From positions 2,052-66,051 of the forward strand of contig CAYJEE010000001.1 in assembly GCA_964369145.1 (NCBI GenBank): a stretch of 64,000 nt of DNA, read 5' to 3'. The notes under the pieces were generated by a model that saw only the letters and a program-made list of their open reading frames with translations, searched no databases and was not told the origin of the DNA. Positions 19,080 through 60,561 of the stretch are shown piece after piece. The stretch's first letter is position 1; the number at the start of each line of letters is the position of its first letter. The DNA comes from an uncultured Candidatus Saccharibacteria bacterium. GTDB taxonomy: Bacteria; Patescibacteriota; Minisyncoccia; Phycocordibacterales; DATDWN01. The position numbers and the translations under genes were made by a program.

Positions 19080-19178
19080 GGTGTGGTGTAATTTGCTTGA
19101 CGTTTGCCTCTAAAAATGATACAAATAGAGTACTCTATACCACTTTTTAACCACATTATTTACTTTAAACATACGTTT

Positions 19179-20216
19179 ATGAGCGAAAAAACAATTATTA
19201 CATTCAAACCAAAGCAAGTTTCAAAGCGCCTTATCGGTGTACTTTCTCCTCGTGCGCAGGATGTGATTATTGGACGTTATGGACTTGGTGCTGATACCAA
19301 GCGTATGACTCTCGAAGCTATCGGAAAAAAGTACAAAATCACCCGAGAGCGAGTGCGACAAATCGAAAACTACTCTATTGCAAACATTCGTAAGTCAAAA
19401 GAGTATGAGACAGAGAAAGTGGCTTTTGGTGAACTCAAAACTATCGTCAAAGTACTTGGTGGAATGGTCTCTGAAGAAGATTTGCTCAAACATGTGTCAA
19501 AAGACAAAAGTACACAAAATCACGTACACTTCCTTCTCGTAGTAGGTGAAGAGTTTACAAAAGAAAAAGAGGATCCAGAGTTTAAACACCGATGGCATGT
19601 AGACAAAGATTTGTCTAAAAAGATTCACGAATCACTTCGAAAACTCTATGAAAACATGGAAGATGATCAGATTCTTCCAGAATCTCAAATGATCGAAGCG
19701 TTTCTCGAACACCTCAAAGATGTTGCGACTGAATACAAGAACGAAGAAATCCTCCGACGATGGCTTTCAATTTCAAAAACAATCAATAAAAATCCACTGG
19801 GTGAATGGGGTAAAGCAGATTCTCCAAACATCAACACAAAAGGTATGCGAGACTATGCATTTCTCGTGATCCGACGACATGGCTCACCAATTCACTTCCG
19901 TGAAGTAGCAAAACTTATCGGTGAACTCTTTGGTAAAAAAGCTCACGTCGCTACAACTCACAACGAACTCATCAAAGATCCACGGTTTGTACTCGTCGGA
20001 CGAGGACTCTACGCACTTTCTGAATGGGGTTATATGTCAGGTGTTGTCAAAGACGTGATCAAAGGTGTGCTCGAGAAGAATGGTCCACTTACAAAAGAAA
20101 AGATTATCGAGAAGGTGATGAAAGAACGATATGTGAAAGAAAACACTATCATGGTAAATCTCCAGAACACAAAACTTTTTAAGAAGACTAAGGACGGAAA
20201 GTATTCAATCGCTTAA
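19179..20216 (+). CDS. protein with N-terminal sigma-70 region-4-like HTH and long C-terminal extension
   Basis: LSPRAQDVIIGRYGL...LEAIGKKYKITRERVRQIE resembles sigma region 4.2. Confidence 0.45.
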   Translation: MSEKTIITFKPKQVSKRLIGVLSPRAQDVIIGRYGLGADTKRMTLEAIGKKYKITRERVRQIENYSIANIRKSKEYETEKVAFGELKTIVKVLGGMVSEEDLLKHVSKDKSTQNHVHFLLVVGEEFTKEKEDPEFKHRWHVDKDLSKKIHESLRKLYENMEDDQILPESQMIEAFLEHLKDVATEYKNEEILRRWLSISKTINKNPLGEWGKADSPNINTKGMRDYAFLVIRRHGSPIHFREVAKLIGELFGKKAHVATTHNELIKDPRFVLVGRGLYALSEWGYMSGVVKDVIKGVLEKNGPLTKEKIIEKVMKERYVKENTIMVNLQNTKLFKKTKDGKYSIA

Positions 20217-20473: not shown

Positions 20474-21709
20474 ATGGATTTTTCTTTGTTTACCCAACTT
20501 ATCAATACCGCTGGAGTAGCACTCGTATTTAAGGTTATTCTTTTTACAGCTCCAGTATGGCTTACTCTTTTATTAGGTTTGTCGTTGTGGAATATGTGGC
20601 TTGTATATAAGCGTGCACTGTATTTTGCAGGTCTATCTACGGTACTTCTTGAGGTGCGTCTTCCGAAAGAGATTTTTAAGTCACCAAAAGCTATGGAGTT
20701 TTTGTTTACTGCTTTGTGGCAGACAGGTGGAGAAGGTACGTGGTTTGATGTGTATTGGAAAGGTCAGACAAGACCATGGTATTCATTTGAGCTCTGTGCA
20801 ATCGATGGTAAACTTCACTTTTTCATCTGGACTCAAAAGAAATTTAAAAACATGATTGAGGCAAACTTGTATTCTCAGTACCCAGGCATTGAAATACATG
20901 AAGTCTCGGATTACACTCCTGCAGTTTCTTATGATCCTGACACACACAATGCATTTACTGCTGAGTTTGCCTTGACTAAAGCAGATCCTTTTCCAATCAA
21001 GACCTATGTTGACTACGGTATGGACAAAGATCCAAAAGAAGAGTTTAAGATTGATCCGATGACACCATTGGTAGAATTTCTCGCATCAAGTATGGGTGCA
21101 GGGCATAATGCATGGATACAAATCATCGCTCGTGCACACAAAGCAGAAGAGTGGGATCCGGTGAAAAAAGCGCTTGTTGATGAACGGTGGGCAAAAGGTG
21201 CAGAAAAAGAAGTGGAGGCGATACGTGCCAAAACAAAACCGAAAGAGCCGGGGGAGCAAGCTCGAAGATTGACCAAAGTCGAAGAAGATATTATTGTCGC
21301 ACTTCAGCGTAGCGTTACAAAACCAGGCTTTGATGTAGGTATCAGAGCTGTCTACATTGCACCAAAAGATATTTTTAGTCCCACAATTGGTGCAGGTATT
21401 GTAGCGGGTATGAGAAATTATAATTCAGGAGAATTGAATGGTTTTAAAGCGGTGCGCAACCCAGATGCGACAGTAAACTATCCATGGCAGTTTATGAAGA
21501 TAAAAAAGAAGAACCCTTTAAAACTTGAGATGATAGATGCATACAAACATCGAGGATATTTCTACAATGAATTCAAAGCACCTCATTTTGTATTAAACAC
21601 TGAAGAGCTTGCAACCATTTTCCATCTTCCTGGAGGAGTGGCTACTACACCTGCATTTGACCGAATCGGATCAAAGAAGGCAGAGGCCCCATCTAACCTT
21701 CCTCTGTAA
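20474..21709 (+). CDS. membrane-anchored hypothetical protein (411 aa)
   Basis: N-terminal TM pair and a large soluble domain. Confidence 0.45.
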   Translation: MDFSLFTQLINTAGVALVFKVILFTAPVWLTLLLGLSLWNMWLVYKRALYFAGLSTVLLEVRLPKEIFKSPKAMEFLFTALWQTGGEGTWFDVYWKGQTRPWYSFELCAIDGKLHFFIWTQKKFKNMIEANLYSQYPGIEIHEVSDYTPAVSYDPDTHNAFTAEFALTKADPFPIKTYVDYGMDKDPKEEFKIDPMTPLVEFLASSMGAGHNAWIQIIARAHKAEEWDPVKKALVDERWAKGAEKEVEAIRAKTKPKEPGEQARRLTKVEEDIIVALQRSVTKPGFDVGIRAVYIAPKDIFSPTIGAGIVAGMRNYNSGELNGFKAVRNPDATVNYPWQFMKIKKKNPLKLEMIDAYKHRGYFYNEFKAPHFVLNTEELATIFHLPGGVATTPAFDRIGSKKAEAPSNLPL

Positions 21710-24015: not shown

Positions 24016-24204
24016 ATGATAACCGGACGAGAAAGAAAGTTTCGAAGAAAGATAAAAAAACTTTCCAAGGAAGAAGAGCGAGCTCGAGATGAACGTTTTC
24101 GTGAAGCGGTTGCTCGACTGGAAGCTGATCCAGAATACATTGCATTACAGGCTGCTTGCCGAAGAGCTGATGAAAGAGGGCCTAATGTTAAATGTACCGT
24201 TTAG
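24016..24204 (+). CDS. small basic protein (62 aa)
   Basis: Arg/Lys-rich ORF with its own terminator at 24212-24250. Confidence 0.4.
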   Translation: MITGRERKFRRKIKKLSKEEERARDERFREAVARLEADPEYIALQAACRRADERGPNVKCTV

Positions 24205-24211
24205 GTGCAGA

Positions 24212-24250
24212 AGGAGGGTGCGTTGTACACGCCCCTCTTTTGTTTTTTCG
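24212..24250 (+). terminator. hairpin gagggtgcg..cgcccctc + ttttgttttttc
   Basis: intrinsic terminator shape. Confidence 0.55.
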
Positions 24251-24271
24251 TAAAAATTTTGTGATAATACA

Positions 24272-25099
24272 GTGATGGATATTCTTATTACAAAAGCGGA
24301 TGGTACAAAAGAAAAATTCGATGTTTCAAAGCTCGAAGGGTCTCTTAAGAGAGCAGGAGCAAATTCTAAAGTCGTTTCAGATATTATTGCTACTGTAGAA
24401 AAAGATTTGTTTGAAGGTGTTACGACCAAAGAAATCTATCATCATGCATTTGACCTTCTAAAAAAAGAGGAGAAACCGATTGCACTCAAGTACTCACTCA
24501 AACGAGCGATTATGGAGCTCGGGCCGTCTGGTTTTCCGTTTGAAAAATTTATTGCAGAAATATTTAAATACAAAGGCTACACAGCAGAGACAGGGAAGAT
24601 AGTCAAAGGTTTTTGTGTGGAGCATGAAGTGGATGTGGTGGCGTGGAATAAAGAAAAACTAGTGATGTGTGAAGCAAAATTTCACAACGACCCCGGTATG
24701 AAATCTGATCTTAAAGTTGCTCTCTATGTAAAAGCGCGTTTTGATGATTTGCGAAAAATGACTTTTAAATACGGAAAGGAGCGCAGGCTTGATGAAGGAT
24801 GGCTCGTAACAAATACAAAGTTTTCTTCGACTGCAATCGAGTATGGATCGTGCCAAGGTGGACTCATTATGGTGGGATGGAACTATCCTCCTCGAGGCAA
24901 TCTCCATGATCTCGTCCTGGAAGCAAAGCTACATCCGGTGACGTGCCTCACTTCACTAACAGGTCGAGAAAAGAAATTTCTACTCCAGCAAGGTTTGGTG
25001 CTCTGTAAATCAATCCTCGAAAACCCTGGACTCCTGCCACTAATGGGACTTTCACCAGTGAAGGCAAAGAAGGTGCTTGAAGAAATTGAAATGTTGTAA
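24272..25099 (+). CDS. ATP-cone domain fused to Mrr-like (type IV restriction endonuclease fold) domain
   Basis: N-terminal ILITKADGTKEKFDVSKL (ATP-cone); central FEKFIAEIFKYKGY...VDVVAW (Mrr catalytic core layout). Confidence 0.65.
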   Translation: MMDILITKADGTKEKFDVSKLEGSLKRAGANSKVVSDIIATVEKDLFEGVTTKEIYHHAFDLLKKEEKPIALKYSLKRAIMELGPSGFPFEKFIAEIFKYKGYTAETGKIVKGFCVEHEVDVVAWNKEKLVMCEAKFHNDPGMKSDLKVALYVKARFDDLRKMTFKYGKERRLDEGWLVTNTKFSSTAIEYGSCQGGLIMVGWNYPPRGNLHDLVLEAKLHPVTCLTSLTGREKKFLLQQGLVLCKSILENPGLLPLMGLSPVKAKKVLEEIEML

Positions 25100-25111: not shown

Positions 25112-25139
25112 AAAAGCGCAGCCGGTAGGCTGCGCTTTT
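25112..25139. terminator. perfect bidirectional terminator aaaagcgcagcc-ggta-ggctgcgctttt
   Basis: between convergent genes. Confidence 0.7.
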
Positions 25140-25159: not shown

Positions 25160-26899
25160 TTAGATAAGGATTTGTTGTTTTTCGACATATTCCATGTAGA
25201 GACCTGATTTCTCTAAGAGTTCTCGGTGAGTTCCTGTTGCGGCAATCTCACCGCGATCATTAAGAACAATAATCCGGTCCACTCCTTGTATTGTCGAGAG
25301 ACGATGGGTGATTATGATGGTAGTTCGTCCTAAACACACCTCGTTGATGGTTGCTTGGACATAAGCTTCAGTGATGGCATCCAGGGCTGATGTTGGTTCA
25401 TCAAGCACTAGTATCTTTGCATCACTTGCAAGAGCTCTGGCAATAGCAATTCGTTGCTTTTCCCCTCCACTGAGTCGATTACCCATTTCACCAACTTGGG
25501 TCAAGAGACCTTTGCTGAATTTTGAGAGATCGAGTTTGACAGAGGCACAGAGCTTCAGGAGTTTTTCTTGTGAAAGAGGTGCTGGTGCTCCCATGTTGAT
25601 GTTGTCTTCTATGGTCATTTCCATTGTCAGACAACCTTGATCAACCAATGCAATGTGGCTCCGTAAATCATGGATGTCCACTGCACAGAGATCATGACCG
25701 TCGATTTGAACAACACCGGCCGTCGGATCGTAAGCTCTCACCAGGAGACTTAAGATTGTACTTTTGCCGGAGCCAGAAGCGCCGACAATCGCAACCTTTT
25801 CTCCCACATGAACATGGAAGGAGATATCCCTGAGAACTGGAGTTGAATCCATTTCGCCTTCCTCTGCAGGATAACTAAACGAAACATGTTTGAATTCAAT
25901 GAATCCTGCAACCTTTTCAAGACGAACAGGGTGAGGGATTTCATGTATTGCAGGTGAAGTGTTTATGAGATCGAGAAACCTTTCGGCTGAGGTCGATTCA
26001 ATTAAAGCATTTTGGTATTTCTCACCCAAGGCTTCGATTTTCTCGAATACCTGCTCCCACCACATTCGTGCTGTTACCAGCTCGCCCGCAGTAAGTTTGT
26101 TTTCGTAGTACAAGTAGATGCAGGTGACCATGGCAATATACTTACTGGCAACAAGAATCATGTACATCAGCTCATTTCGCACAGCGATATATGTGTTCGT
26201 TGCTTTCGATACTTCCACTGATTGCTGGTAGATTTTTCGGTACCTTTCTCTCATTGCGTCCTCTTTCGAAAACGCTTTTACCAGAGGCGCACCTGCAAGT
26301 AGGTCGCCACGTTGTTTTGATGAAACCAAGTCTTTCTTCTGACGGAGCTTGATTCGCGGGACGTACTTTTTGCGCATGTGCCATACAGTCAGTCCATAAA
26401 CCAAGAGCCCAGTCATAATAATGAGACCGACAGGTAGATGAAGGCTAAGAAGAATAACAATGGTGATTATTACTCGACTGATTACGGGAGCGATATCTGT
26501 AACCAGTAAGGTCGCTAGCGTTTGTAGTGAGTGCTCCCCGGTTGAAATTATCTCTCGGGACATTCCACTACTCATTTCCTTTAATTGACCGATTGAAAAC
26601 AAGAAGTACTGATTAATCGTCTTCATCCGTAGGTATTCCTGAATAGGGAACCAGACTTTGTTGAGGTTCACCTTTTGGCGTAACAGACGGATTACAGACC
26701 TTGAGACGCCAATCGCGGGGTCCAAGGATGCAATCGCTACAACTAGCCAAATATTTTGGCGTTTAACCATTGCGTCCATCATTATTCCTAACACAAAAGG
26801 GAAGGCCATGCCTAAAAGAGACATGACAAAATTGAGGCTGACGAGGGCGGCAACACTTAGTTTGTGGTTGCCAAAAATCATAACAATGTACTTGAGCAC
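25160..26899 (-). CDS. ABC transporter, fused permease/ATPase (MsbA-like exporter)
   Basis: Walker A GASGSGKST, signature LSGGEKQRIAIARAL. Confidence 0.85.
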   Translation of the reverse strand: MLKYIVMIFGNHKLSVAALVSLNFVMSLLGMAFPFVLGIMMDAMVKRQNIWLVVAIASLDPAIGVSRSVIRLLRQKVNLNKVWFPIQEYLRMKTINQYFLFSIGQLKEMSSGMSREIISTGEHSLQTLATLLVTDIAPVISRVIITIVILLSLHLPVGLIIMTGLLVYGLTVWHMRKKYVPRIKLRQKKDLVSSKQRGDLLAGAPLVKAFSKEDAMRERYRKIYQQSVEVSKATNTYIAVRNELMYMILVASKYIAMVTCIYLYYENKLTAGELVTARMWWEQVFEKIEALGEKYQNALIESTSAERFLDLINTSPAIHEIPHPVRLEKVAGFIEFKHVSFSYPAEEGEMDSTPVLRDISFHVHVGEKVAIVGASGSGKSTILSLLVRAYDPTAGVVQIDGHDLCAVDIHDLRSHIALVDQGCLTMEMTIEDNINMGAPAPLSQEKLLKLCASVKLDLSKFSKGLLTQVGEMGNRLSGGEKQRIAIARALASDAKILVLDEPTSALDAITEAYVQATINEVCLGRTTIIITHRLSTIQGVDRIIVLNDRGEIAATGTHRELLEKSGLYMEYVEKQQILI

Positions 26900-27012
26900 A
26901 CGGTTCTCCTGAAGTAAGTGATGTCAAAAAACTAGAATTAGTCCGCCTGTATTATAGCACACTATATATCAATTTGTCAAGTATTTTTATTGTATAATTT
27001 TGGCATAATGGG

Positions 27013-27657
27013 GTGATGAAATCAGCTCAAAAAAAATCGAAAAAAGCCCCAAGGAAAGCCACATCTGGAGACATCAAAAATATCACAAACTTTCTCTTTG
27101 AGGTGGGGATTTTGACCAAGACTCCTCGGAGCGGACTGCACTTTCTAGGTACTGGAGAGCAGTCGGTGGCAGAGCATGTCAATAGAGTGTGCTTTATCGG
27201 CTATATGCTTGCACATCTCGATGGTGAAGCGGACCTTTCAAAAGTCCTCCAGATGTGTCTTTTTCACGACATTACGGAAACACGAATTTCTGACCTCAAC
27301 TATATTCATCAGAAATATGTCGTACGAAAAGAACATGAGGCGATGGTAGATATTTCAAATTCGATTCCATTTGGTGAAAATGTTTTCGCTACACTTGCCG
27401 AGTATGAAAAAAGAGAAAGCAAGGAGTCTTTGATTGTAAAAGATTCTGATAATCTCGAGTGGATCCTTACGCTCAAAGAAGAATTTGATAAAGGAAATGA
27501 GCGAGCATTGAGTTGGATTCTGCCCGCGATCAAAAGACTTAAAACTCCGCATGCTCAAAGTATCGCTAAAGAAATTATGAAGACGGATGCAAATGATTGG
27601 TGGTTTAGTAAGAAAGAGCAAAAAGATTCATGGTGGGTTAATAGAGGAAAAAAGTAA
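27013..27657 (+). CDS. HD-domain phosphohydrolase (YfbR-like 5'-deoxynucleotidase family)
   Basis: H...HD...D motif (LFHDITETRISDLN). Confidence 0.7.
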   Translation: MMKSAQKKSKKAPRKATSGDIKNITNFLFEVGILTKTPRSGLHFLGTGEQSVAEHVNRVCFIGYMLAHLDGEADLSKVLQMCLFHDITETRISDLNYIHQKYVVRKEHEAMVDISNSIPFGENVFATLAEYEKRESKESLIVKDSDNLEWILTLKEEFDKGNERALSWILPAIKRLKTPHAQSIAKEIMKTDANDWWFSKKEQKDSWWVNRGKK

Positions 27658-27662
27658 TATAT

Positions 27663-29477
27663 ATGAAAAAAACTAAAGAATATTTAAATTTTTTAAACGA
27701 CACATACCACAAGCTTCATAAAACATACGAAGATTTTTTTTGGCTTTCGTACATGGGTGATCACTCGATAGACGCAAAAAAAGATGAGGCGCTGGCTTCA
27801 ATCGATGCTTTTAAGGCAAATAAGGAGCATCTTGAAACTGTAGAAAAATTAATAAAGGAAACAAAGGGTCCGCTTAAGGCGCGTCTTGCGCAGTGGCAGA
27901 GATTTTTTAATCAATATCACACTCCTGCTGAGGCGGTGCCTTTAAAAAAGGAAATTGATGAACTTGAAACATTGATCAATAAAAAACATGGAGAAAGAAC
28001 GGAAGGGTATGTAGATCCGTATACAAAAAAGTTTGTAGAGGTTTCTTCTGTTCAGATGGGATCAATGATACGAACAAATCCTGATGAGAAAATCCGCAAA
28101 GCGTGTTTTGAGGGAAAAGAAAAATTGGCTACAGACTCGTTGAGCGAGTATATAAAACTAGTTACCCTTCGCAATCAGTATGCACGGATTCTTGGTTATA
28201 CAGATTTTTATGATTTCAAAGTCAAAAAAGAAGATGGAATGACAAAGAAAGAATTGTTTGGAATTTTTGATTCTATTTACGATAAAACAAAATACGCACG
28301 AAAAGATATTATAAAACTTGAAAAGACAATGCCAGGGCTTCGTAAGCCGTGGAATTTTGGCTATATGCTCGCTGGGGATTTTACAAAGGAAGAGGATCCG
28401 TATTTCCAGTTTGATGAAGCATTGATGCGATGGGGGAGATCATTTGCAGCAATGGGGATTGATTTTAAAGAAGGGAAGCTACAGCTCGATCTGTTGGATA
28501 GAAAAGGGAAGTGGAACAACGGCTTTTGTCATTGGCCTGACTTGGTCAAATATGAAGGTACAAAAAGAATACCAGGAAGCTCAAACTTTACCTGTACTGT
28601 GGTTATGGGACAGGTTGGCTCAGGAGAAATGGGGTACAACACTCTTTTTCATGAAGGAGGTCACGCTGCACACTTGCTAAATTCTGTTCAAAAAGATGTG
28701 TGTCTCAATCATGAGTACCCTCCGATGTCGAATGCTCTCGCTGAGACTCATAGTATGTTTCTCGATACTATGTATGGAGGTATTGAGTGGCAGACTCGAT
28801 ATGCAAAAAATGCAAAAGGTGAAGCGTACCCTTTCGAACTTTTTGAGAAAATGGTCCGAAAGCTTCATGTACTACGTCCACTTGATTTAAATGGGATCAT
28901 TGCTGTGTCTGTATTCGAAAAAGAAATCTACGAGACTAAAAAACTAACTCCAGAAAAAGTGATCAGTATTGCACATAAAAATTTCAAAAAATATTTTGAG
29001 CGATCAGAAGACTCACTTATGCTTCTCAATGTGCCTCATATTTACGGATGGGATTCTTCCGGCTCATATCATGGGTATGGACTTGCAACTCTCGCGCTCT
29101 CACAATGGAGAAAATATTTCTTTAAAAAGTACGGGTATATTGTCGACAATCCAAAAGTGGGGAAAGAAATGGAAAAGGTATGGAAACTTGGGTCGTTAAA
29201 AACATTTAATGAGTTTGTAAAAATTATTACCGGTGAAAAACTAAAACCAACTGCGTATTTGGAACATATGACTGCTTCTATTCCACAAATACTAAAGGGC
29301 GCACAAGAAAAAATTGCTCGTCTTAAAAAGGTAAAGGAGTATACAAAAAAAGTAGATTTGAAGGCTTCGATTTCAATGGTTCACGGTAAAGATGAGATTT
29401 GTAATAACAAGAAAAGTTTTGAAGATATGGCAGAGAAATATAAAGCGTGGCTCAAAACCCAATCTATTCAAAAATAG
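27663..29477 (+). CDS. pepF: M3-family oligoendopeptidase (PepF-like)
   Basis: HEGGH zinc motif (LFHEGGHAAHLL) and size. Confidence 0.75.
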   Translation: MKKTKEYLNFLNDTYHKLHKTYEDFFWLSYMGDHSIDAKKDEALASIDAFKANKEHLETVEKLIKETKGPLKARLAQWQRFFNQYHTPAEAVPLKKEIDELETLINKKHGERTEGYVDPYTKKFVEVSSVQMGSMIRTNPDEKIRKACFEGKEKLATDSLSEYIKLVTLRNQYARILGYTDFYDFKVKKEDGMTKKELFGIFDSIYDKTKYARKDIIKLEKTMPGLRKPWNFGYMLAGDFTKEEDPYFQFDEALMRWGRSFAAMGIDFKEGKLQLDLLDRKGKWNNGFCHWPDLVKYEGTKRIPGSSNFTCTVVMGQVGSGEMGYNTLFHEGGHAAHLLNSVQKDVCLNHEYPPMSNALAETHSMFLDTMYGGIEWQTRYAKNAKGEAYPFELFEKMVRKLHVLRPLDLNGIIAVSVFEKEIYETKKLTPEKVISIAHKNFKKYFERSEDSLMLLNVPHIYGWDSSGSYHGYGLATLALSQWRKYFFKKYGYIVDNPKVGKEMEKVWKLGSLKTFNEFVKIITGEKLKPTAYLEHMTASIPQILKGAQEKIARLKKVKEYTKKVDLKASISMVHGKDEICNNKKSFEDMAEKYKAWLKTQSIQK

Positions 29478-29567
29478 TTGAAAACTTATTTCCGGAAAAA
29501 AGAAAAAGTAGAAACAAAAATCCGCTTCTCCAGGGCGGATTTTGTCCGTCTGAAGAAGCGGTTTGGT

Positions 29568-30149
29568 TTATTCACCTTTGAAGTAGGTGAAGCGAAGACC
29601 GAGCAGGGCATTGGTGCGCCCTTTCTCGTCCCAGGTAATAGTGGGACGTATAGAAGGTGTCCACCTGCCGATTGGGTTTAGACGATATTCTGCCCGCACG
29701 CCGTGACCAAGGAAGGCCTGGCTGTGGGTGCCGACAGACCAACGTTCGCTGAGTTTTACGTCAGTCAGGGTAAGATACCAGTAACCAGTCACCCCTTTGT
29801 CTTCGTAGATGACGAAGACGTAGCACCGACCCTTATTGGCGTACAGGTATGACCCAATACGCATTTTGCTGGTGGTCTGCTCAACTCCGCCACCGACTCC
29901 GACTTGGAGCCAGCTTGTGGGTTTGGCATAACCACCCACGTAGGCTTGACGATAGTTTGTTCCTATCTGCCCCCAGCCAAAGAGGCCAGTGTGTTTGGTG
30001 AGGCTTTGTTGTGCCCACACCGTATTTGTCTGGCTGTCTGCCCCTGCACTTTTGAAGGTGCTGTACGATTCAGTAAAAATGAATGTCTCAGCGTTTGTTT
30101 TTTGGCAAAAAAACAAACAAAAAACGAACAAGAATATGAAGGTTCGCAT
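29568..30149 (-). CDS. secreted beta-barrel-like protein (193 aa)
   Basis: signal peptide; amphipathic beta pattern ...LLGLRFTYF. Confidence 0.4.
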   Translation of the reverse strand: MRTFIFLFVFCLFFCQKTNAETFIFTESYSTFKSAGADSQTNTVWAQQSLTKHTGLFGWGQIGTNYRQAYVGGYAKPTSWLQVGVGGGVEQTTSKMRIGSYLYANKGRCYVFVIYEDKGVTGYWYLTLTDVKLSERWSVGTHSQAFLGHGVRAEYRLNPIGRWTPSIRPTITWDEKGRTNALLGLRFTYFKGE

Positions 30150-30233
30150 GGGTTCTCCGTGTATTATAATAGCATATATAATGTGTACTTGTCAAGTTTT
30201 TGGTTCATCTAAACTATATGGTAAACTAAAGTC

Positions 30234-30656
30234 ATGTGGATACTTTATGCACTTATCTCAGCGCTTTTTGCAGGCATGGTGGCGGTCTTTGGAAAGCTTG
30301 GGCTTAAGAATATTGATTCGACTCTTGCGACTACAGTGCGCTCATTTATCATGGCGGGGTTTCTCGGGGTGACCGCTCTTGCACTGAAAAAGTTTCAAGG
30401 TTTTTCACTTTCAACATTTACGGGGCGTGAGTGGGCGTATATTGCACTCTCTGGTGTAGCGGGAGCACTCTCATGGCTCTTTTACTTCGTGGCACTCAAA
30501 AATGGAACTGCGGTGACTGTCTCTGCGATCGACCGATTGAGTATTGTCTTTGTGCTCGTATTTGCAGCACTCTTTTTAGGCGAAGGGTTTACCTTGTGGA
30601 AAGTGGTGGGTGTGCTCTGTATTGCACTTGGTGCTTTCTTGACTACTTTGAAATAG
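30234..30656 (+). CDS. EamA-like (DMT superfamily) small transporter
   Basis: 4-TM EamA-type pattern. Confidence 0.55.
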   Translation: MWILYALISALFAGMVAVFGKLGLKNIDSTLATTVRSFIMAGFLGVTALALKKFQGFSLSTFTGREWAYIALSGVAGALSWLFYFVALKNGTAVTVSAIDRLSIVFVLVFAALFLGEGFTLWKVVGVLCIALGAFLTTLK

Positions 30657-30966
30657 GTTGTATGATGTATATAGATGTTTTATCGAGCCAGGAAGTATCT
30701 AGAGGCTGCTCTACTGTGGGTAGCTTTTATTCTTGTTTTGAGCTTTGCATTTTCGGTGATTGTGCCTAATTTTTTACGTGCTAAGCTTGAAGCTAGCGGG
30801 AAAAACTTCAGGGTCCGCTTTGAGCGGATTTGCAAGAGGATCATTCGGTACCTCGAGTCCGAGCCGTTCGCGTATCGGATGTAGGTTGTAGTGTTAGCGC
30901 ATCTCGTGAATAACGAGGTGCGCTTTAAATTTCCTATGCTACTATTAATTATGAAAGGAGCTCTTT

Positions 30967-31149
30967 GTGGCAAATACCAATGAAGAAATTGAAAAAGAGG
31001 TTGAAAGGCCTGAACCTCTTACCTCTCAGGAAATCGACCAGGTGATTGCTAACAGTGCACATCTCTGGCGTACTCGCAAACCATTAAAGAAAGAAAGTGG
31101 TATTCCAAGGAAACCAAGGGACGTTCGCGCTTTTGTGCATGATTTCTGA
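30967..31149 (+). CDS. small hypothetical protein (60 aa)
   Basis: ORF followed by a strong terminator. Confidence 0.3.
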   Translation: MANTNEEIEKEVERPEPLTSQEIDQVIANSAHLWRTRKPLKKESGIPRKPRDVRAFVHDF

Positions 31150-52268: not shown

Positions 52269-55200
52269 ATGATACGTAGAGTTATATTAAAATTATTTTT
52301 GGTAACAAGTACTTTTATGTTTTGCTGCGGGATTACATTTCCGTACGTTGGTGTACTAGAAGCTGCAGATGCGCTGATTATTTCTAATATTGGAGTAGAT
52401 AGTGTTTCCTACACATCTGTGCGTATTCAATGGAATACAGATATACCCGCTTCATTGTCTCGAGTAAAATATGACACTGTAGCAACAGAAGAGCCATTTA
52501 CAAACGGTACAGCTAACAAACTTAGTAATACTAGTACAATTCATGGATATACTCTTGGTGGTCTTGCGCCAAATACACTTTACAATTTTAAAGTGTGTTC
52601 AACGGTAAATTCAATCGAAACATGTAGCCCCACTCAGAATTTCACTACAACAGCTGCACCTTCAAATCGTTTTTCTCCGCCAACACTTCCAAACTCTGCT
52701 ACGTTGTCTTCTATGCCTACGATAAACGGTACTACACACACTGTAGCAGCTGATTGTAGTGATTTGCAGATAAAAATAAATACTGCCGCAGCAACGTCCG
52801 GCTCATTGAATCATCAAATTCTTATTCCTCCTACTGCTCTTTGTAAAGGTAATTATGAGCTTCCGTCTCGAGCTGGTACGGGTTGGATTGTAGTCCGTTC
52901 TGCGGCAAGTGATGCCCAGCTTCCTCCGGAAGGTACCCGTGTAGGCCTTAGTTATGCGCCTGTTATGCCCACTATTTACGGGCTAGTTGAAGGTGAGACA
53001 CATTTACAATCAACTATTTTTACAGAGAATCCAACTTCTAAATGGAGATTTGTTGGTGTTCAGATTAAAGGAAGTGCAGGGCGACGTGGATCAGCGGTTC
53101 ATCTTGGACGCGGAGTATCAACAGATATCATTTTTGATAGAGATATTTTTGATATATCAGGGGATACTACATATACCGTAAGAAATGAAGGTGTCCGCAA
53201 TATTGTTGCACATTCATATATCCATCATGTAAAAACAGGCTCTCTCGCAGTGGCAATTGGTCTGACGAACTCACAATATGCTCTGATTGATAACAACTAT
53301 ATCAATGCTCCTGGTATTAGCATTTTTGGTGAAGAAGGAGGAGGAAATCTACCGCCAGCTTCGGATATTACAATCACTCGAAACTTTTTTGAATGGGATA
53401 GTGTGAACAAAACAAATACAATAGTAAGACATCAATTAGAATTTAAATCAGGGGAAAGAATTCTCATTAGGGGTAATATCTTTAAAGACTCATGGACTGG
53501 CGGAATTACTGGTGGCATGGCACAAGTAATACTTTTCTTTCCAAGAGCAGGTTGGAGTGGTTCCATACGAAATTCATTAAATTATATTGCTGACGTGACT
53601 ATAAAAGATAATGTTCTTATTAATACTGCTGGCGGAATTGGCTTAGTTGGATCTGAATCGGCTGGAGTAGCTTCTGACGTAGCTTCAACTAAACGTTTTC
53701 TCATTAAGAACAATATTTTTTATAAGTTAAATGGTTATAATGGCGCTCCCGGTAATGCAGTAGCAGGATCTCCTTTTTATATTGCAGGAGCAATTGAAGA
53801 TGTAGTGATTGATCACAATACGATATATGATCCAAGAGGACTGTTTCCTGCTACTATTTGGTTTCTTGAAAACGTGGGTGCTGGTTTAAAATTAACCAAT
53901 AACATTATTACACAAAATTATACGAGTAGTATTGGTGGCTTTTACAAAAATACAGATTATCCAGGTCAGCTTCCAGTAGTAACGAACGGTAGCGCGTTTT
54001 CAACAATTGGCGGATCAGTGCGTGCAGCACCAAATGTAGACCCTACTCTTTTGGTACAAGGTAATCTTATTCTTCCTGGGGTTACTGACACTAGCTCAGA
54101 ATCAGCGTACTCAAATCCTTCTTCTTTCTATTCTCTTGCGAGCTGTACTACCTACTGGTCTGGCTTTACAAATAATGCTTGTGCGGGTAATATTTCTACG
54201 CTTACAGCAAACTCAGTAACTGCATCAGTTGGTTTTGCTAATACGTCTACATTCTCTGGTTTATATTTAGCATCTGGTCCATACAAAAATAGTGCTTCGG
54301 ATGGAGCAGATCCTGGAGTTGATATAAATAATTTAAATGCTCAAGTATCAAATACTATGACCGGCGGTTATGTTCCCCCTCCCCCCTCCGACACCACTCC
54401 CCCTGTCTTTTCTAATATTTCAGCCGGCACAATCACCACTGACTCAGTGATGGTCACCTGGACAACAAACGAATCCTCTGACACTCAGGTAGAATACGGA
54501 CTCACTGCAAGCTATGGTTCGTCTTCAACATTAAATGCAACACTCGGATCATCTCACAGCGTACCCCTTACATCACTGACTCCAAACACCCTATATCATT
54601 ATCGTGTAAAATCTAGAGACGGTGCAGGCAACCAAGCGATTTCCGCAGATCAAACCTTCACAACACGTGCTGTCGTAGCGACAGTGGTAGATCCGACATT
54701 AAATGTAGTCACAAAAGATTTCGGTAGTCTTCCGGTTGGTTCATCTACTCAACCATTCATGTTTTCAATCAACAATCCAAACAGTTCTTTTGTTGGAGTC
54801 AGTGCTGTGGCAGTAACGGGTGATTTTTCAATCACTACAAACTACTGTACTTCCGGTATGCAACCTTCTACTCACTGTGACATATATGTTGCTTTTAACC
54901 CCTCTACAAGTGGAACACGAACAGGTACTCTCATCATCACTCTTACAGGTGCTTCTACAAACACACTCTCTGTCACACTTGCCGGTACAGGAACAGCAGT
55001 CAACACACCAGAAGACCCTCCAATCCTTCCTCCACCTCCAGTTATCACACCCCCTCCTGTAGTCACTCCTCCTATCATTCCTCCTCCTCAAAAGATACCT
55101 CCACCAGGAATCATCATCACCAAAACTCTTGCTCGAGGAATGACTTCTCCCGAGATTATCATTCTTCAAACCCATCTCAAACAAATTGGTTTGTTTGAGA

Positions 55201-55601
55201 ACTCAATACAGACAAGCAACTACTTTGGTCCGGCAACAGAAAGAGCGGTTAAACTCTATCAAGCATCTAAAGGAATCGAGCAGACTGGTATCGTCGGCCC
55301 ACTAACACGAGGAAGCTTAGCTGGATCATCGACTCCACCACAAACTGTTACTTCTCAAGTACTTCCTACAACTGTATACATCGGTGTGAAGCATTCTGAT
55401 GTAGTGAAGTTACAAAATATTCTCAAGAGACTTGGTTTCTTCCCACAGAATGTTGATTCTTCAGGATACTTTGGCCCTACCACAAAAAAAGCGGTGCAGG
55501 CATTCCAGAGACAATACACTATTGCCTCAAGTGGTACTGAAAATACCACTGGGTACGGTATGGTGGGAAAGAAAACGTGGGCTAAGCTTTTAGGTTTGTA
55601 A
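52269..55601 (+). CDS. cell-wall-anchored surface enzyme: Fn3-like N-terminus, right-handed beta-helix (pectate-lyase-like) domain, Fn3, Pro-rich linker, two PG_binding_1 domains
   Basis: parallel beta-helix repeats; Fn3 with ...TPNTLYHYRVKSRD...; C-terminal PG-binding repeats. Confidence 0.65.
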   Translation: MIRRVILKLFLVTSTFMFCCGITFPYVGVLEAADALIISNIGVDSVSYTSVRIQWNTDIPASLSRVKYDTVATEEPFTNGTANKLSNTSTIHGYTLGGLAPNTLYNFKVCSTVNSIETCSPTQNFTTTAAPSNRFSPPTLPNSATLSSMPTINGTTHTVAADCSDLQIKINTAAATSGSLNHQILIPPTALCKGNYELPSRAGTGWIVVRSAASDAQLPPEGTRVGLSYAPVMPTIYGLVEGETHLQSTIFTENPTSKWRFVGVQIKGSAGRRGSAVHLGRGVSTDIIFDRDIFDISGDTTYTVRNEGVRNIVAHSYIHHVKTGSLAVAIGLTNSQYALIDNNYINAPGISIFGEEGGGNLPPASDITITRNFFEWDSVNKTNTIVRHQLEFKSGERILIRGNIFKDSWTGGITGGMAQVILFFPRAGWSGSIRNSLNYIADVTIKDNVLINTAGGIGLVGSESAGVASDVASTKRFLIKNNIFYKLNGYNGAPGNAVAGSPFYIAGAIEDVVIDHNTIYDPRGLFPATIWFLENVGAGLKLTNNIITQNYTSSIGGFYKNTDYPGQLPVVTNGSAFSTIGGSVRAAPNVDPTLLVQGNLILPGVTDTSSESAYSNPSSFYSLASCTTYWSGFTNNACAGNISTLTANSVTASVGFANTSTFSGLYLASGPYKNSASDGADPGVDINNLNAQVSNTMTGGYVPPPPSDTTPPVFSNISAGTITTDSVMVTWTTNESSDTQVEYGLTASYGSSSTLNATLGSSHSVPLTSLTPNTLYHYRVKSRDGAGNQAISADQTFTTRAVVATVVDPTLNVVTKDFGSLPVGSSTQPFMFSINNPNSSFVGVSAVAVTGDFSITTNYCTSGMQPSTHCDIYVAFNPSTSGTRTGTLIITLTGASTNTLSVTLAGTGTAVNTPEDPPILPPPPVITPPPVVTPPIIPPPQKIPPPGIIITKTLARGMTSPEIIILQTHLKQIGLFENSIQTSNYFGPATERAVKLYQASKGIEQTGIVGPLTRGSLAGSSTPPQTVTSQVLPTTVYIGVKHSDVVKLQNILKRLGFFPQNVDSSGYFGPTTKKAVQAFQRQYTIASSGTENTTGYGMVGKKTWAKLLGL
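55099..55601 (+). repeat. left copy of a ~503-bp inverted duplication (C-terminal 164 codons + stop of the surface protein; encoded aa 100% identical to the right copy)
   Basis: encoded aa identical to the gene 58255-60561 C-terminus; antisense translations 55355-55549 and 58217-58501 are also identical (64 aa); nt identity compared directly only in part. Confidence 0.85.
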
Positions 55602-58254: not shown

Positions 58255-58757
58255 TTACAAACCTAAAAGTTTAGCCCACGTTTTCTTTCCCACCATACCG
58301 TACCCAGTGGTATTTTCAGTACCACTTGAGGCAATAGTGTATTGTCTCTGGAATGCCTGCACCGCTTTTTTTGTGGTAGGGCCAAAGTATCCTGAAGAAT
58401 CAACATTCTGTGGGAAGAAACCAAGTCTCTTGAGAATATTTTGTAACTTCACTACATCAGAATGCTTCACACCGATGTATACAGTTGTAGGAAGTACTTG
58501 AGAAGTAACAGTTTGTGGTGGAGTCGATGATCCAGCTAAGCTTCCTCGTGTTAGTGGGCCGACGATACCAGTCTGCTCGATTCCTTTAGATGCTTGATAG
58601 AGTTTAACCGCTCTTTCTGTTGCCGGACCAAAGTAGTTGCTTGTCTGTATTGAGTTCTCAAACAAACCAATTTGTTTGAGATGGGTTTGAAGAATGATAA
58701 TCTCGGGAGAAGTCATTCCTCGAGCAAGAGTTTTGGTGATGATGATTCCTGGTGGAG
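58255..58757 (-). repeat. right copy of the ~503-bp inverted duplication
   Basis: see left copy. Confidence 0.85.
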
Positions 58758-60561
58758 TCGGTACAACCGGAGAGATTATTGTCGTCGTTGCTAAAGGTGC
58801 TGGAGGTACAACAACTGGAGGAACAATGATGGGAAGTGGGTCAATAGGAGGTATAATAGATCCCCCGCCACCGCCTCCCCCTCCTCCACCACCTCCACCG
58901 CCGCTCACAACTGTAGCAAGTGTAGTAAATGTTGTATTAGGTGAAGTGATGAGGTTACCTGATGCATCTCTACTCTTCACACGATAGTGATACACCGTAT
59001 TTGGCGAGAGATTGATGAGAAATGCTGTATGAGAAGTATTGAGTGACTCATTGAGAGTACTTACACTTCCGTATTGATCTGTTATACCGTATTCTACCTG
59101 TGAGCTTGCAGATTCACTGGTTGTCCATGAAACTGTGACGGATGTTTGAGTGATACCTGAACTCGCTAAGGATGAAATTATTGGAGGGGTACTATCGGGA
59201 ACTGTTCTCCATTCTACATACTTTTGACTCCATCTATAGTTTTGAGAATACTGTTTTCCACCAGTACCTACTCCACCCAAATATGCTCCAGCAACTCCTG
59301 AATTAAAAATTTTATCTCCTCGGATACGATAAACAACATCTCCAGTTTGTCGATAGACCCAACCATACAGAGGAGCAATAAGTAGGTTAAGATCGGGTGC
59401 GGGAGCACCTTGTATATAAGTGGTTGTATCGACATAACGAAAAGCTTGGCCGTTCTCATCCCAATGAGTGAGCCATAATTCGTCGGCAGCCAACTTTAGT
59501 AGCGGAGGAATTCTAGGATCCGCTGTTAAATCCCAATACTCAATCAGTGCTTCAGCAGAAAGTGCAACCATAAATGGTTGTACATAATTAGCATTTTTAC
59601 TTACAAACCATTGGTCAAAATGACCAATTACTATCTCTGCAATATCTTGAAGAGTAGGTTTCCTAGCTAGACCCACACGCTCTGCTGCAATATTAACTTC
59701 TAATGCATAAGCCAATTCTCTCGAATTTTCCCAACTTACAGCAAAACCAACATTTTGAAGACTTGCATACGCACTATTTTCTCGCATGAGGTTAAGAGCA
59801 TCTTTTGACAACGTGTCACCAGTCCGTTCAAAATTCATAGCCAAACCTTGAGGAAAATACCGCCAACCGGGAATTCCTCCATTTGCATTTATAACGTATG
59901 GTCTGTATAAACTTTGTATTAAAAGTGCGCAATCATCCCAACTTGGATCATGTGTGTAATCTGCTATTTGATAAAATACTCTGATGCCATCGTAATACCA
60001 CGCAGCACCCTCCCATATAGAAGTCACCTCAACAGGATCACAATGCATTAAACCAAAATGAGTCATGTTATTTTCCCATGTAGAAAGGCTTGAGAGAGAT
60101 GTGTTAGATGGAAATACATCTTTAACTATTTGTGCTGGAATAGGGTTGACAGTAATATCATAGACAACACTCCGGACAACTCCGCTTTGACTGGTATATG
60201 TGATGGTAATTGGGTATGTTCCCGTGGGAGTATTTGTCGTAGTTATTATCTTTAATGAAGTTATACTACTAATATTATATAAATATGTTCCACAACAATA
60301 CTTAACCATATCCGGGTAAGTCGCTGTCATTCCTGTCGCAAGTCCACTCACTGAAGGTGTGACTGGTTCATCAACCCCACTTATAAGAGATGATGCTAAA
60401 ACAATAGCTATTGAATTACCTTTAACCACACTATGTGGACCAAAAGCTGTTAGTGTAAATTGTGGAGGTTCGTTTATTTGTGCGTGGATAGTATTACTCA
60501 GTATAAAAAACAATACTATTCCGACAAACATCAAAATTGTAAATAGCGAGTACTTTCTCAT
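58255..60561 (-). CDS. cell-wall-anchored surface enzyme 2: signal peptide, alpha/alpha-toroid-like (polysaccharide lyase/GH-like) domain, Fn3, poly-Gly/Pro linker, two PG_binding_1 domains
   Basis: distinct N-terminal catalytic region; Fn3 ...SPNTVYHYRVKSRD...; GGGGGGGGGGGGGG linker; C-terminal 164 aa identical to the 52269-55601 product. Confidence 0.65.
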   Translation of the reverse strand: MRKYSLFTILMFVGIVLFFILSNTIHAQINEPPQFTLTAFGPHSVVKGNSIAIVLASSLISGVDEPVTPSVSGLATGMTATYPDMVKYCCGTYLYNISSITSLKIITTTNTPTGTYPITITYTSQSGVVRSVVYDITVNPIPAQIVKDVFPSNTSLSSLSTWENNMTHFGLMHCDPVEVTSIWEGAAWYYDGIRVFYQIADYTHDPSWDDCALLIQSLYRPYVINANGGIPGWRYFPQGLAMNFERTGDTLSKDALNLMRENSAYASLQNVGFAVSWENSRELAYALEVNIAAERVGLARKPTLQDIAEIVIGHFDQWFVSKNANYVQPFMVALSAEALIEYWDLTADPRIPPLLKLAADELWLTHWDENGQAFRYVDTTTYIQGAPAPDLNLLIAPLYGWVYRQTGDVVYRIRGDKIFNSGVAGAYLGGVGTGGKQYSQNYRWSQKYVEWRTVPDSTPPIISSLASSGITQTSVTVSWTTSESASSQVEYGITDQYGSVSTLNESLNTSHTAFLINLSPNTVYHYRVKSRDASGNLITSPNTTFTTLATVVSGGGGGGGGGGGGGGSIIPPIDPLPIIVPPVVVPPAPLATTTIISPVVPTPPGIIITKTLARGMTSPEIIILQTHLKQIGLFENSIQTSNYFGPATERAVKLYQASKGIEQTGIVGPLTRGSLAGSSTPPQTVTSQVLPTTVYIGVKHSDVVKLQNILKRLGFFPQNVDSSGYFGPTTKKAVQAFQRQYTIASSGTENTTGYGMVGKKTWAKLLGL

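Follow-up and report, generated by a model that had tools for sequence, protein, structure and literature searches.

The locus and its transcription unit

The gene described here lies on the plus strand of a stretch of 64,000 nucleotides from a contig of an uncultured Candidatus Saccharibacteria bacterium; this whole stretch is referred to as the window. The mechanically called open reading frame (24272-25099, plus strand) encodes 275 aa from a GTG at 24272, and residue numbers are counted from this GTG unless stated otherwise. Starting at the ATG at 24275 gives a coding sequence (24275-25099, plus strand) of 274 aa, the length of the 274-aa relatives, for a protein with an ATP-cone, a PD-(D/E)xK nuclease core and an HhH-like domain. 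Upstream of its promoter, an intrinsic terminator (24212-24250, plus strand; hairpin and T-run; -19.2 kcal/mol, z -2.8) closes the unit formed by mnmA and a small open reading frame. This terminator was overlooked by a simple scan, and it is kept in the related loci L001-L006; its stem differs in L004 and L005 and is still self-complementary. Downstream, a bidirectional intrinsic terminator with a 12-bp stem (25112-25139; -23.8 and -20.8 kcal/mol, z -5.0 and -5.1) separates the gene from a convergent ABC exporter gene (25160-26899, minus strand).

A promoter-like element read from the sequence spans 24240-24268 (plus strand) and consists of a weak -35 box, TTGTTT (24240-24245), a 17-nt spacer and the extended -10 element TGTGATAAT (24260-24268). 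This element fails the -35 criterion of the promoter scan and lies below the scan threshold; since the scan did not call it, support for the promoter comes from conservation and position-specific enrichment. The box is kept in L001-L006, where its end always lies 6 nt before the ATG. In addition, 47 of 89 distinct Patescibacteria upstream regions have a TAnnnT hexamer that ends exactly 6 nt before the ATG (0-10 at most other offsets), and SD-like 4-mers were found in just 8 of the 89. The fixed spacing, the hexamer enrichment and the scarcity of SD-like 4-mers together suggest that the real start is most likely ATG 24275, on a leaderless mRNA. The flanking terminators and the extended -10 promoter that an earlier note had read from this DNA are therefore real, and together they support its proposal that the gene is its own transcription unit, which from the sequence is monocistronic in the window.

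The small open reading frame upstream (24016-24204, plus strand) encodes a 62-aa Arg/Lys/Glu-rich protein and has its own AAGGAGG Shine-Dalgarno sequence. We assign it to the mnmA unit because of this Shine-Dalgarno sequence and its position before the terminator. Of the 96 Patescibacteria loci, L001-L003 have it intact, as does the window, and L005 carries a shortened form; L004, L006 and all loci of more distant relatives lack it. It matched no family in Pfam, NCBIfam or PADLOC. The small basic protein to which the earlier note had drawn attention thus exists, with a Shine-Dalgarno sequence, but it is restricted to the closest relatives and is a lineage-specific addition to the mnmA unit, a neighbor of the gene and not a conserved partner. 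A toxin-antitoxin pair formed with this open reading frame was also considered and rejected, because a terminator lies in between and the two genes are not conserved together.

Domain architecture and conserved residues

The protein has three domains. Pfam assigned residues 5-78 to the ATP-cone (PF03477; 32.6 bits against a curated cut-off of 25.8, E 1.2e-7) and residues 87-194 to Mrr_cat (PF04471), also above its curated cut-off, and gave a weak AF1548-like_C match at residues 222-273. We delimit the ATP-cone domain to 24281-24520 (residues 4-83), the PD-(D/E)xK nuclease core to 24539-24886 and the C-terminal helical, HhH-like AF1548-like_C domain to 24893-25096, all on the plus strand; the inter-domain connector LGPSGFPFE (residues 83-91) occupies 24518-24544 (plus strand). 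An AF2 model built with a cross-phylum alignment (A3) was confident, with a pLDDT of 94.5 and a pTM of 0.89, and superseded an earlier, mediocre model from a shallow alignment of close relatives (67-92% identity; pLDDT 72). The N-terminal domain has the beta-hairpin lid and four-helix fold of an ATP-cone, the Mrr_cat region has a restriction-endonuclease-like fold, and the pTM of 0.89 indicates that the predicted arrangement of the domains is fixed. The C-terminal domain resembles the HhH modules of DNA enzymes and is presumed to bind the DNA backbone non-specifically.

By sequence, the sole significant relative with a solved structure was AF1548 (PDB 1Y88; E 2.7e-25 over residues 93-272), and this homology covers both the nuclease core and the AF1548-like_C domain; the closest nuclease fold after AF1548 is that of the DNA-repair enzyme NucS. 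The crystallized AF1548 chain has 199 aa. A 265-aa protein that is 99% identical to AF1548 has an ATP-cone, and we conclude from this that the crystallized chain is a truncated member of the same family. These results collectively demonstrate that the protein is a three-domain member of the AF1548 family, with an ATP-cone fused to an Mrr-like nuclease core as the earlier note had read it, both Pfam profiles being above their cut-offs and the catalytic motif intact.

The four catalytic residues are E119 (codon at 24626-24628), D121 (24632-24634), E134 (24671-24673) and K136 (24677-24679), all encoded on the plus strand. They are invariant within Patescibacteria (alignment A2), across bacterial phyla (A3) and across Archaea and Bacteria (A4), as well as in alignment A1, and the D/E/K triad is accordingly conserved in every alignment; H138, Y152, R156, D159 and N181 are likewise invariant in A2, A3 and A4. 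In AF1548, residues D38, E51 and K53 were predicted to be catalytic (Yooseph et al., 2007; GOS prediction, PMC1821046), and these match D121, E134 and K136 of the window protein. The numbering of the AF1548 PDB chain is offset by 13. We also considered a three-cysteine metal site (C115/C194/C245) and dropped it, as C245 is not conserved in Archaea.

For the ATP-cone, a single-sequence query of the PDB with the cone alone was uninformative, and profile comparison by hhalign matched it to Escherichia coli NrdR with 84% probability. The NrdR pocket is formed by residues V51, K53, E59, F61, K65, L66 and I108 (bioRxiv 10.1101/2025.03.28.645925), which in the hhalign alignment correspond to I6, K8, E14, F16, K20, L21 and I55. 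K8, E14, F16, K20 and L21 are invariant within Patescibacteria, and K8 and K20 are invariant across Archaea and Bacteria. In A4, archaeal members carry the canonical cone motif K-R-D-G and bacterial members K-A-(S/D)-G; because of this bacterial motif, and because Tyr131 of the outer site of NrdR has no clear counterpart in the hhalign alignment, discrimination of dATP by the bacterial proteins is uncertain. Few segments of the protein are as conserved as the LGPxGFPFE connector (residues 83-91): from Archaea to Bacteria G84, G87, F90 and E91 are invariant and P85 is nearly so, which makes the connector a candidate for the element that couples sensor to nuclease. Together, domain architecture and residue conservation speak for a nuclease that is catalytically active and would be gated by an adenine nucleotide.

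The similarity to NrdR raises another explanation, which is that the protein is an NrdR-like transcription factor whose nuclease fold and HhH domain just bind DNA, with ATP/dATP controlling repression; the earlier note had likewise allowed for a regulator. However, the four catalytic residues and H138 are invariant from Archaea to Bacteria, which would be unexpected for pure binding, and this invariance makes a regulator unlikely. Neither Pfam nor the AF2 model revealed a Zn-ribbon, and no nrd gene adjoins the family gene in any locus annotated. We therefore regard an NrdR-like factor as very improbable.

Distribution, neighborhoods and inheritance

A family search returned 6,261 matches at 90% clustering and, at E<1e-30, 460 clusters at 50% identity, almost all of 270-290 aa and matched over their full length. 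By source name, members come from Patescibacteria, Dependentiae/Babeliales, Bacteroidota and Chlamydiota. Cultivable carriers include Pontibacter actiniarum, with the plasmid gene CA264_RS21705, and Salegentibacter, Sphingobacterium and Myroides. When the AF1548 core was the query, the search added proteins of 262-280 aa, also with PF03477, from Archaeoglobi, Korarchaeota, Bathyarchaeia, Aenigmarchaeota, Nanoarchaeota and Altiarchaeales, and the family as a whole is uniform in length at about 262-290 aa. The family and its architecture are already catalogued, in Pfam, as PDB 1Y88 and under the NCBI names 'ATP cone domain-containing protein' and 'restriction endonuclease'. A literature search that was not exhaustive found no functional or experimental study of the family, its one relevant hit being the GOS prediction from 2007 for the catalytic residues, and the description of the family as poorly characterized holds.

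To describe the neighborhoods in Patescibacteria, we used 96 loci (L001-L015, L030 and L034-L113); these have the highest similarity to the query in the database, probably belong to one class and are not phylogenetically independent, and the ORF calls of the neighbors are crude. Among the 71 loci with enough sequence, 67 have mnmA as a same-strand gene upstream, in 57 cases no more than 400 nt away, and alaS lies at most 6 kb downstream in 35 of 47. The block leuS / sigma70_r4-HARE-HTH / DUF8128 / mltG / mnmA / family gene ... alaS is kept down to 38% identity (L030). Furthermore, measured by mean identity to the window copy, the protein is about on a par with AlaRS and above MnmA, LeuRS and MltG, so that the gene diverges no faster than the aminoacyl-tRNA synthetases; its GC content is unremarkable. 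These results show that the gene is vertically inherited within a conserved housekeeping block. Of the housekeeping synteny with nrd genes that the earlier note had named as evidence against its own reading, the synteny is thus present and consistent, with translation and DNA-repair genes as the neighbors in place of nrd.

The DNA-repair neighbors emerged when recurrent downstream genes were identified by ORF clustering and Pfam/NCBIfam annotation. Three genes recur, for a Cas4-like nuclease, a family-4 uracil-DNA glycosylase (UDG) and Ogt; of 81 Patescibacteria loci, 61 have at least one of them downstream of the family gene in the same orientation, and in 28 loci the gene for the Cas4-like nuclease is the immediate neighbor. 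The Cas4-like protein, a PDDEXK_1 nuclease, has paired cysteines at both its N- and its C-terminus, and the UDG scores 188 bits with TIGR00758, whose cut-off is 125. These repair neighbors are missing from the window and from its nearest relatives (L001-L005), and tblastn found no Cas4-like, UDG or Ogt gene elsewhere in the window. Between the gene and alaS the window instead carries the minus-strand ABC exporter gene, a gene for an HD_3/YfbR-like phosphohydrolase and one for an M3 peptidase; an HD_3/YfbR-like gene follows the family gene in the window and in L002, L003, L037, L038 and L081. We conclude that the window and its nearest relatives have lost the repair-gene arrangement, and that the window gene is a typical member of its family, unusual only by this loss and by the gain of the small upstream open reading frame.

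About 13 contexts outside Patescibacteria were available. The order uvrA...gene-ftsW...ruvB-yebC is common to three loci for which Dependentiae/Babeliales are the closest named relatives. In Pontibacter (Bacteroidota) and Criblamydia (Chlamydiota), plasmids carry the same operon, headed by the family gene and continued by genes for a beta-CASP MBL hydrolase, an archaeal-type phosphorylase and a PRPP synthase, and a beta-CASP gene also lies 3' of the family gene in L031, L032 and L118. The phosphorylase scores above the cut-off of TIGR02645 and, with 480-506 bits, just under the cut-off of 535 for TIGR03327 (AMP phosphorylase); the PRPP synthase matches PRK07199. Since the beta-CASP partner is no less similar to RNases (aCPSF1) than to DNases, RNA could be the substrate. 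The islands that house these Bacteroidota and Chlamydiota members also encode Usp, HSP20, P-type ATPases, an archaeal-type GAPDH, a class I aldolase, phosphoketolase and acetate kinase, and by analogy they resemble hypoxia or energy-stress loci; the MBL/Prs/phosphorylase trio is induced by microoxia in Bradyrhizobium (PMC6515984). One identical Bacteroidota copy was seen inside an RteC-type copper-resistance ICE. The term 'stress module', also offered in the earlier note, therefore fits the Bacteroidota and Chlamydiota members in the Usp/HSP20/P-type-ATPase islands.

The same note had proposed a defense module. In an anti-phage or abortive-infection system, the ATP-cone would sense a collapse or distortion of the ATP/dNTP pool and unleash a non-specific DNase. 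We found no relative in IMG/VR contigs or, by tblastn, in 50,697 phage genomes, and only 2 of 72,556 plasmids carry a family member. No PADLOC model reached E 1e-3 with the protein (the best was CARF_PDDEXK, E 0.006), and PADLOC on representative neighbors returned nothing beyond weak fold-level matches (Cas4, mad3/mad8 and QueC). Defense genes were seen beside the family gene in none of the contexts examined; the adjacent genes are those of repair, translation or metabolism. In addition, the synteny is deep and conserved, the conservation is like that of the aminoacyl-tRNA synthetases, and the fixed position is kept in symbionts with small genomes. Taken together, these results argue against a defense module, and an anti-phage role is improbable. 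Still further from the data is an Mrr-like type IV modification-dependent restriction enzyme, or a toxin with the 62-aa protein as its antitoxin, and we give this explanation hardly any weight: the N-terminus is an ATP-cone, with no Mrr_N winged helix or other modification-reader domain; no methyltransferase gene was seen alongside in any annotated locus; inheritance is vertical and syntenic; and a terminator stands between the gene and the putative antitoxin, which only the closest relatives have.

Proposed function and comparison with known systems

Vertical inheritance, conservation and neighbors lead us to a role in DNA maintenance, as a housekeeping gene. Its associations are strongest with DNA-repair enzymes in Patescibacteria and Dependentiae-type bacteria, and with turnover of polynucleotides to nucleotides in Bacteroidota and Chlamydiota. 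On balance, and with a slight lean in its favor, we propose that the protein is an ATP/dATP-gated DNA endonuclease for DNA maintenance, repair or turnover, a chromosomal and vertically inherited housekeeping enzyme. DNA cleavage, ATP/dATP gating and its direction, the role in repair or turnover, the substrate and the oligomeric mechanism are what we infer, as follows. An adenine (deoxy)nucleotide bound to the ATP-cone, read as ATP versus dATP or as energy charge, would switch the endonuclease activity. The switch would act through the invariant LGPxGFPFE connector, probably by a change of oligomeric state as in RNR and NrdR, and incision or degradation of DNA would thereby be coupled to the state of the nucleotide pool. 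In Patescibacteria, the Cas4-like exonuclease, the family-4 UDG and Ogt as partners would place the enzyme in repair; in Bacteroidota and Chlamydiota, the beta-CASP nuclease, the nucleoside/NMP phosphorylase and the PRPP synthase would place it in polynucleotide turnover and salvage into nucleotide precursors. Such coupling would matter most where the supply of dNTPs is limiting, as in salvage-dependent symbionts or under hypoxia.

The substrate could alternatively be RNA, in which case the protein would be an energy-charge-gated endoribonuclease for the turnover of rRNA, tRNA or mRNA, working with the beta-CASP protein as exoribonuclease and delivering NMPs to the phosphorylase and the PRPP synthase. 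RNases of the aCPSF1 type are the closest match of the beta-CASP partner, and the phosphorylase belongs to the sister family of AMP phosphorylase; an RNA substrate would also account for the translation genes nearby (mnmA, alaS and leuS) and is consistent with the Usp/HSP20 stress islands of the Bacteroidota members. Some PD-(D/E)xK nucleases, Can2 and Card1 among them, cut RNA. However, the C-terminal domain is of the HhH-like kind seen in DNA enzymes, NucS, second only to AF1548 in similarity of the nuclease fold, is a DNA-repair enzyme, and DNA-repair enzymes are the commonest operon partners in Patescibacteria. We consider an RNA-directed enzyme unlikely, although less so than an anti-phage system.

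Returning to the DNA endonuclease, a broader proposal can be made more tentatively, and we hold it less probable than not as a whole: the AF1548 family may be the first class of nucleases controlled by an ATP-cone, a near-core endonuclease of DNA repair or turnover in Patescibacteria and Dependentiae, with a wide distribution in Archaea as well. Depending on the ATP/dATP pool, it would permit DNA to be incised, for instance once uracil has been excised, or to be degraded, and it could replace a missing canonical repair nuclease in salvage-dependent organisms. ATP-cones are experimentally studied allosteric switches of ribonucleotide reductases and NrdR; a nuclease output would extend ATP-cone regulation to DNA cleavage. 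The family is strongly conserved, holds a fixed position in Patescibacteria and Dependentiae-type bacteria and is widespread in Archaea, and where de novo nucleotide synthesis is absent it may be a missing piece of DNA repair or of the nucleotide economy. PDB 1Y88, as a truncated member of this three-domain family, provides an immediate structural handle. For annotation, the results argue against the label 'restriction endonuclease' and against counting such genes as defense genes.

Compared with known systems, the mechanism would be a variant of two principles already known, the allostery of ATP-cones and the ligand gating of PD-(D/E)xK nucleases. The nearest relative, AF1548 of Archaeoglobus fulgidus (PDB 1Y88), was crystallized as a 199-aa chain with Mrr_cat and AF1548-like_C and without an ATP-cone, apparently from an N-terminally truncated gene call, and has been assigned no function beyond 'predicted restriction endonuclease' (PMC1821046). 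In contrast to the ATP-cones of NrdR and RNR, where the output is a Zn-ribbon or a reductase, the cone of this family is joined to a nuclease, has no link to nrd genes and has no evident equivalent of Tyr131. The PD-(D/E)xK DNA-repair endonucleases NucS/EndoMS, Hjc and YraN/UPF0102 differ from the family in domain composition and show no membership at the sequence level. Can2, Card1, Cdn1, Cap4 and NucC share with the family the logic of a sensor joined to a PD-(D/E)xK nuclease, and the nuclease cores superpose. However, the sensor of the family is an ATP-cone and not a CARF or SAVED domain, its ligand is presumably a housekeeping nucleotide and not a cyclic-oligonucleotide second messenger, and its members are inherited vertically, outside any CRISPR or CBASS context.

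The family gene: start signal, cysteines and ATP-cone

Of the 89 relatives whose regions upstream of the family gene, which encodes the ATP-cone/PD-(D/E)xK nuclease protein, were compared (loci L001-L113; window 24240-24277), 47 have a -10-like hexamer ending exactly 6 nt upstream of the ATG, and a Shine-Dalgarno sequence was almost absent from the same 89 upstream regions. In addition, the -10 box of these relatives often lies within the 3' end of mnmA. The hexamer at a fixed 6 nt and the near-absence of a Shine-Dalgarno sequence together form a conserved leaderless-mRNA signature for the family gene.

The protein (residues numbered from the GTG) has two cysteines that do not vary across Archaea and Bacteria: C115 (codon at window 24614-24616), which is located four residues N-terminal to the catalytic E119, and C194 (24851-24853). 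Conservation of a third cysteine, C245, is limited to Bacteria and some Archaea. These cysteines may serve in metal binding, in redox chemistry or in holding the structure. The ATP-cone is absent from the crystallised AF1548 chain (PDB 1Y88, 199 aa). Because a 265-aa protein 99% identical to AF1548 contains the ATP-cone, as do most archaeal homologues found in the homologue search (262-280 aa), both the PDB entry and the original AF1548 gene call look N-terminally truncated.

The conserved block and its variable interval

The most conserved gene of the Patescibacteria block encodes a 370-aa Sigma70_r4/HARE-HTH protein (window 19104-20216), which keeps 91-97% identity in relatives with aaRS of only 70-80% identity. 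The gene for a 411-aa membrane protein (20474-21709) is invariably flanked in relatives by this sigma-like gene and mltG. This membrane protein had no Pfam matches in the window scan, and its orthologue in the distant Patescibacteria locus L030 carries the precomputed annotation DUF8128.

Insertions have a hot spot in the interval between the family gene and alaS (window 25160-31096). In the window it contains a minus-strand ABC exporter together with an HD_3/YfbR-like phosphohydrolase, an M3 oligopeptidase and small ORFs; in relatives it holds Cas4-like/UDG4/Ogt/MgtC/PCMT genes or is empty, as in L083 (38 nt).

Elsewhere in the window, two large paralogous proteins (52269-55601, plus strand; 58255-60561, minus strand) both carry PG_binding_1 repeats and purple-acid-phosphatase-N/fn3 domains and are probably cell-surface proteins.

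Family members outside Patescibacteria and the beta-CASP partner

In the Myroides/Sphingobacterium ICE loci (L016-L023), an identical copy of a family member lies within an RteC-type copper-resistance island, beside an archaeal-type GAPDH and a class I FBP aldolase; the island is common to different Bacteroidota genera. In two Bacteroidota-type loci, the family gene is separated from the beta-CASP nuclease gene by the gene for a conserved 84-aa protein with a C-terminal CCGGH (L032:7873-8127 and L118:7864-8118), possibly a metal-binding or precursor-like peptide. Such partner genes were also located at L114:2829-4196, L115:9834-11192 and L031:7851-9221. The top NCBIfam match of the partner is the type VII CRISPR Cas14 model, at 376-405 bits, far under its 800-bit cut-off; aCPSF1 ranks next. 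The beta-CASP partner is a free-standing relative of the Cas14 and aCPSF1 nucleases.
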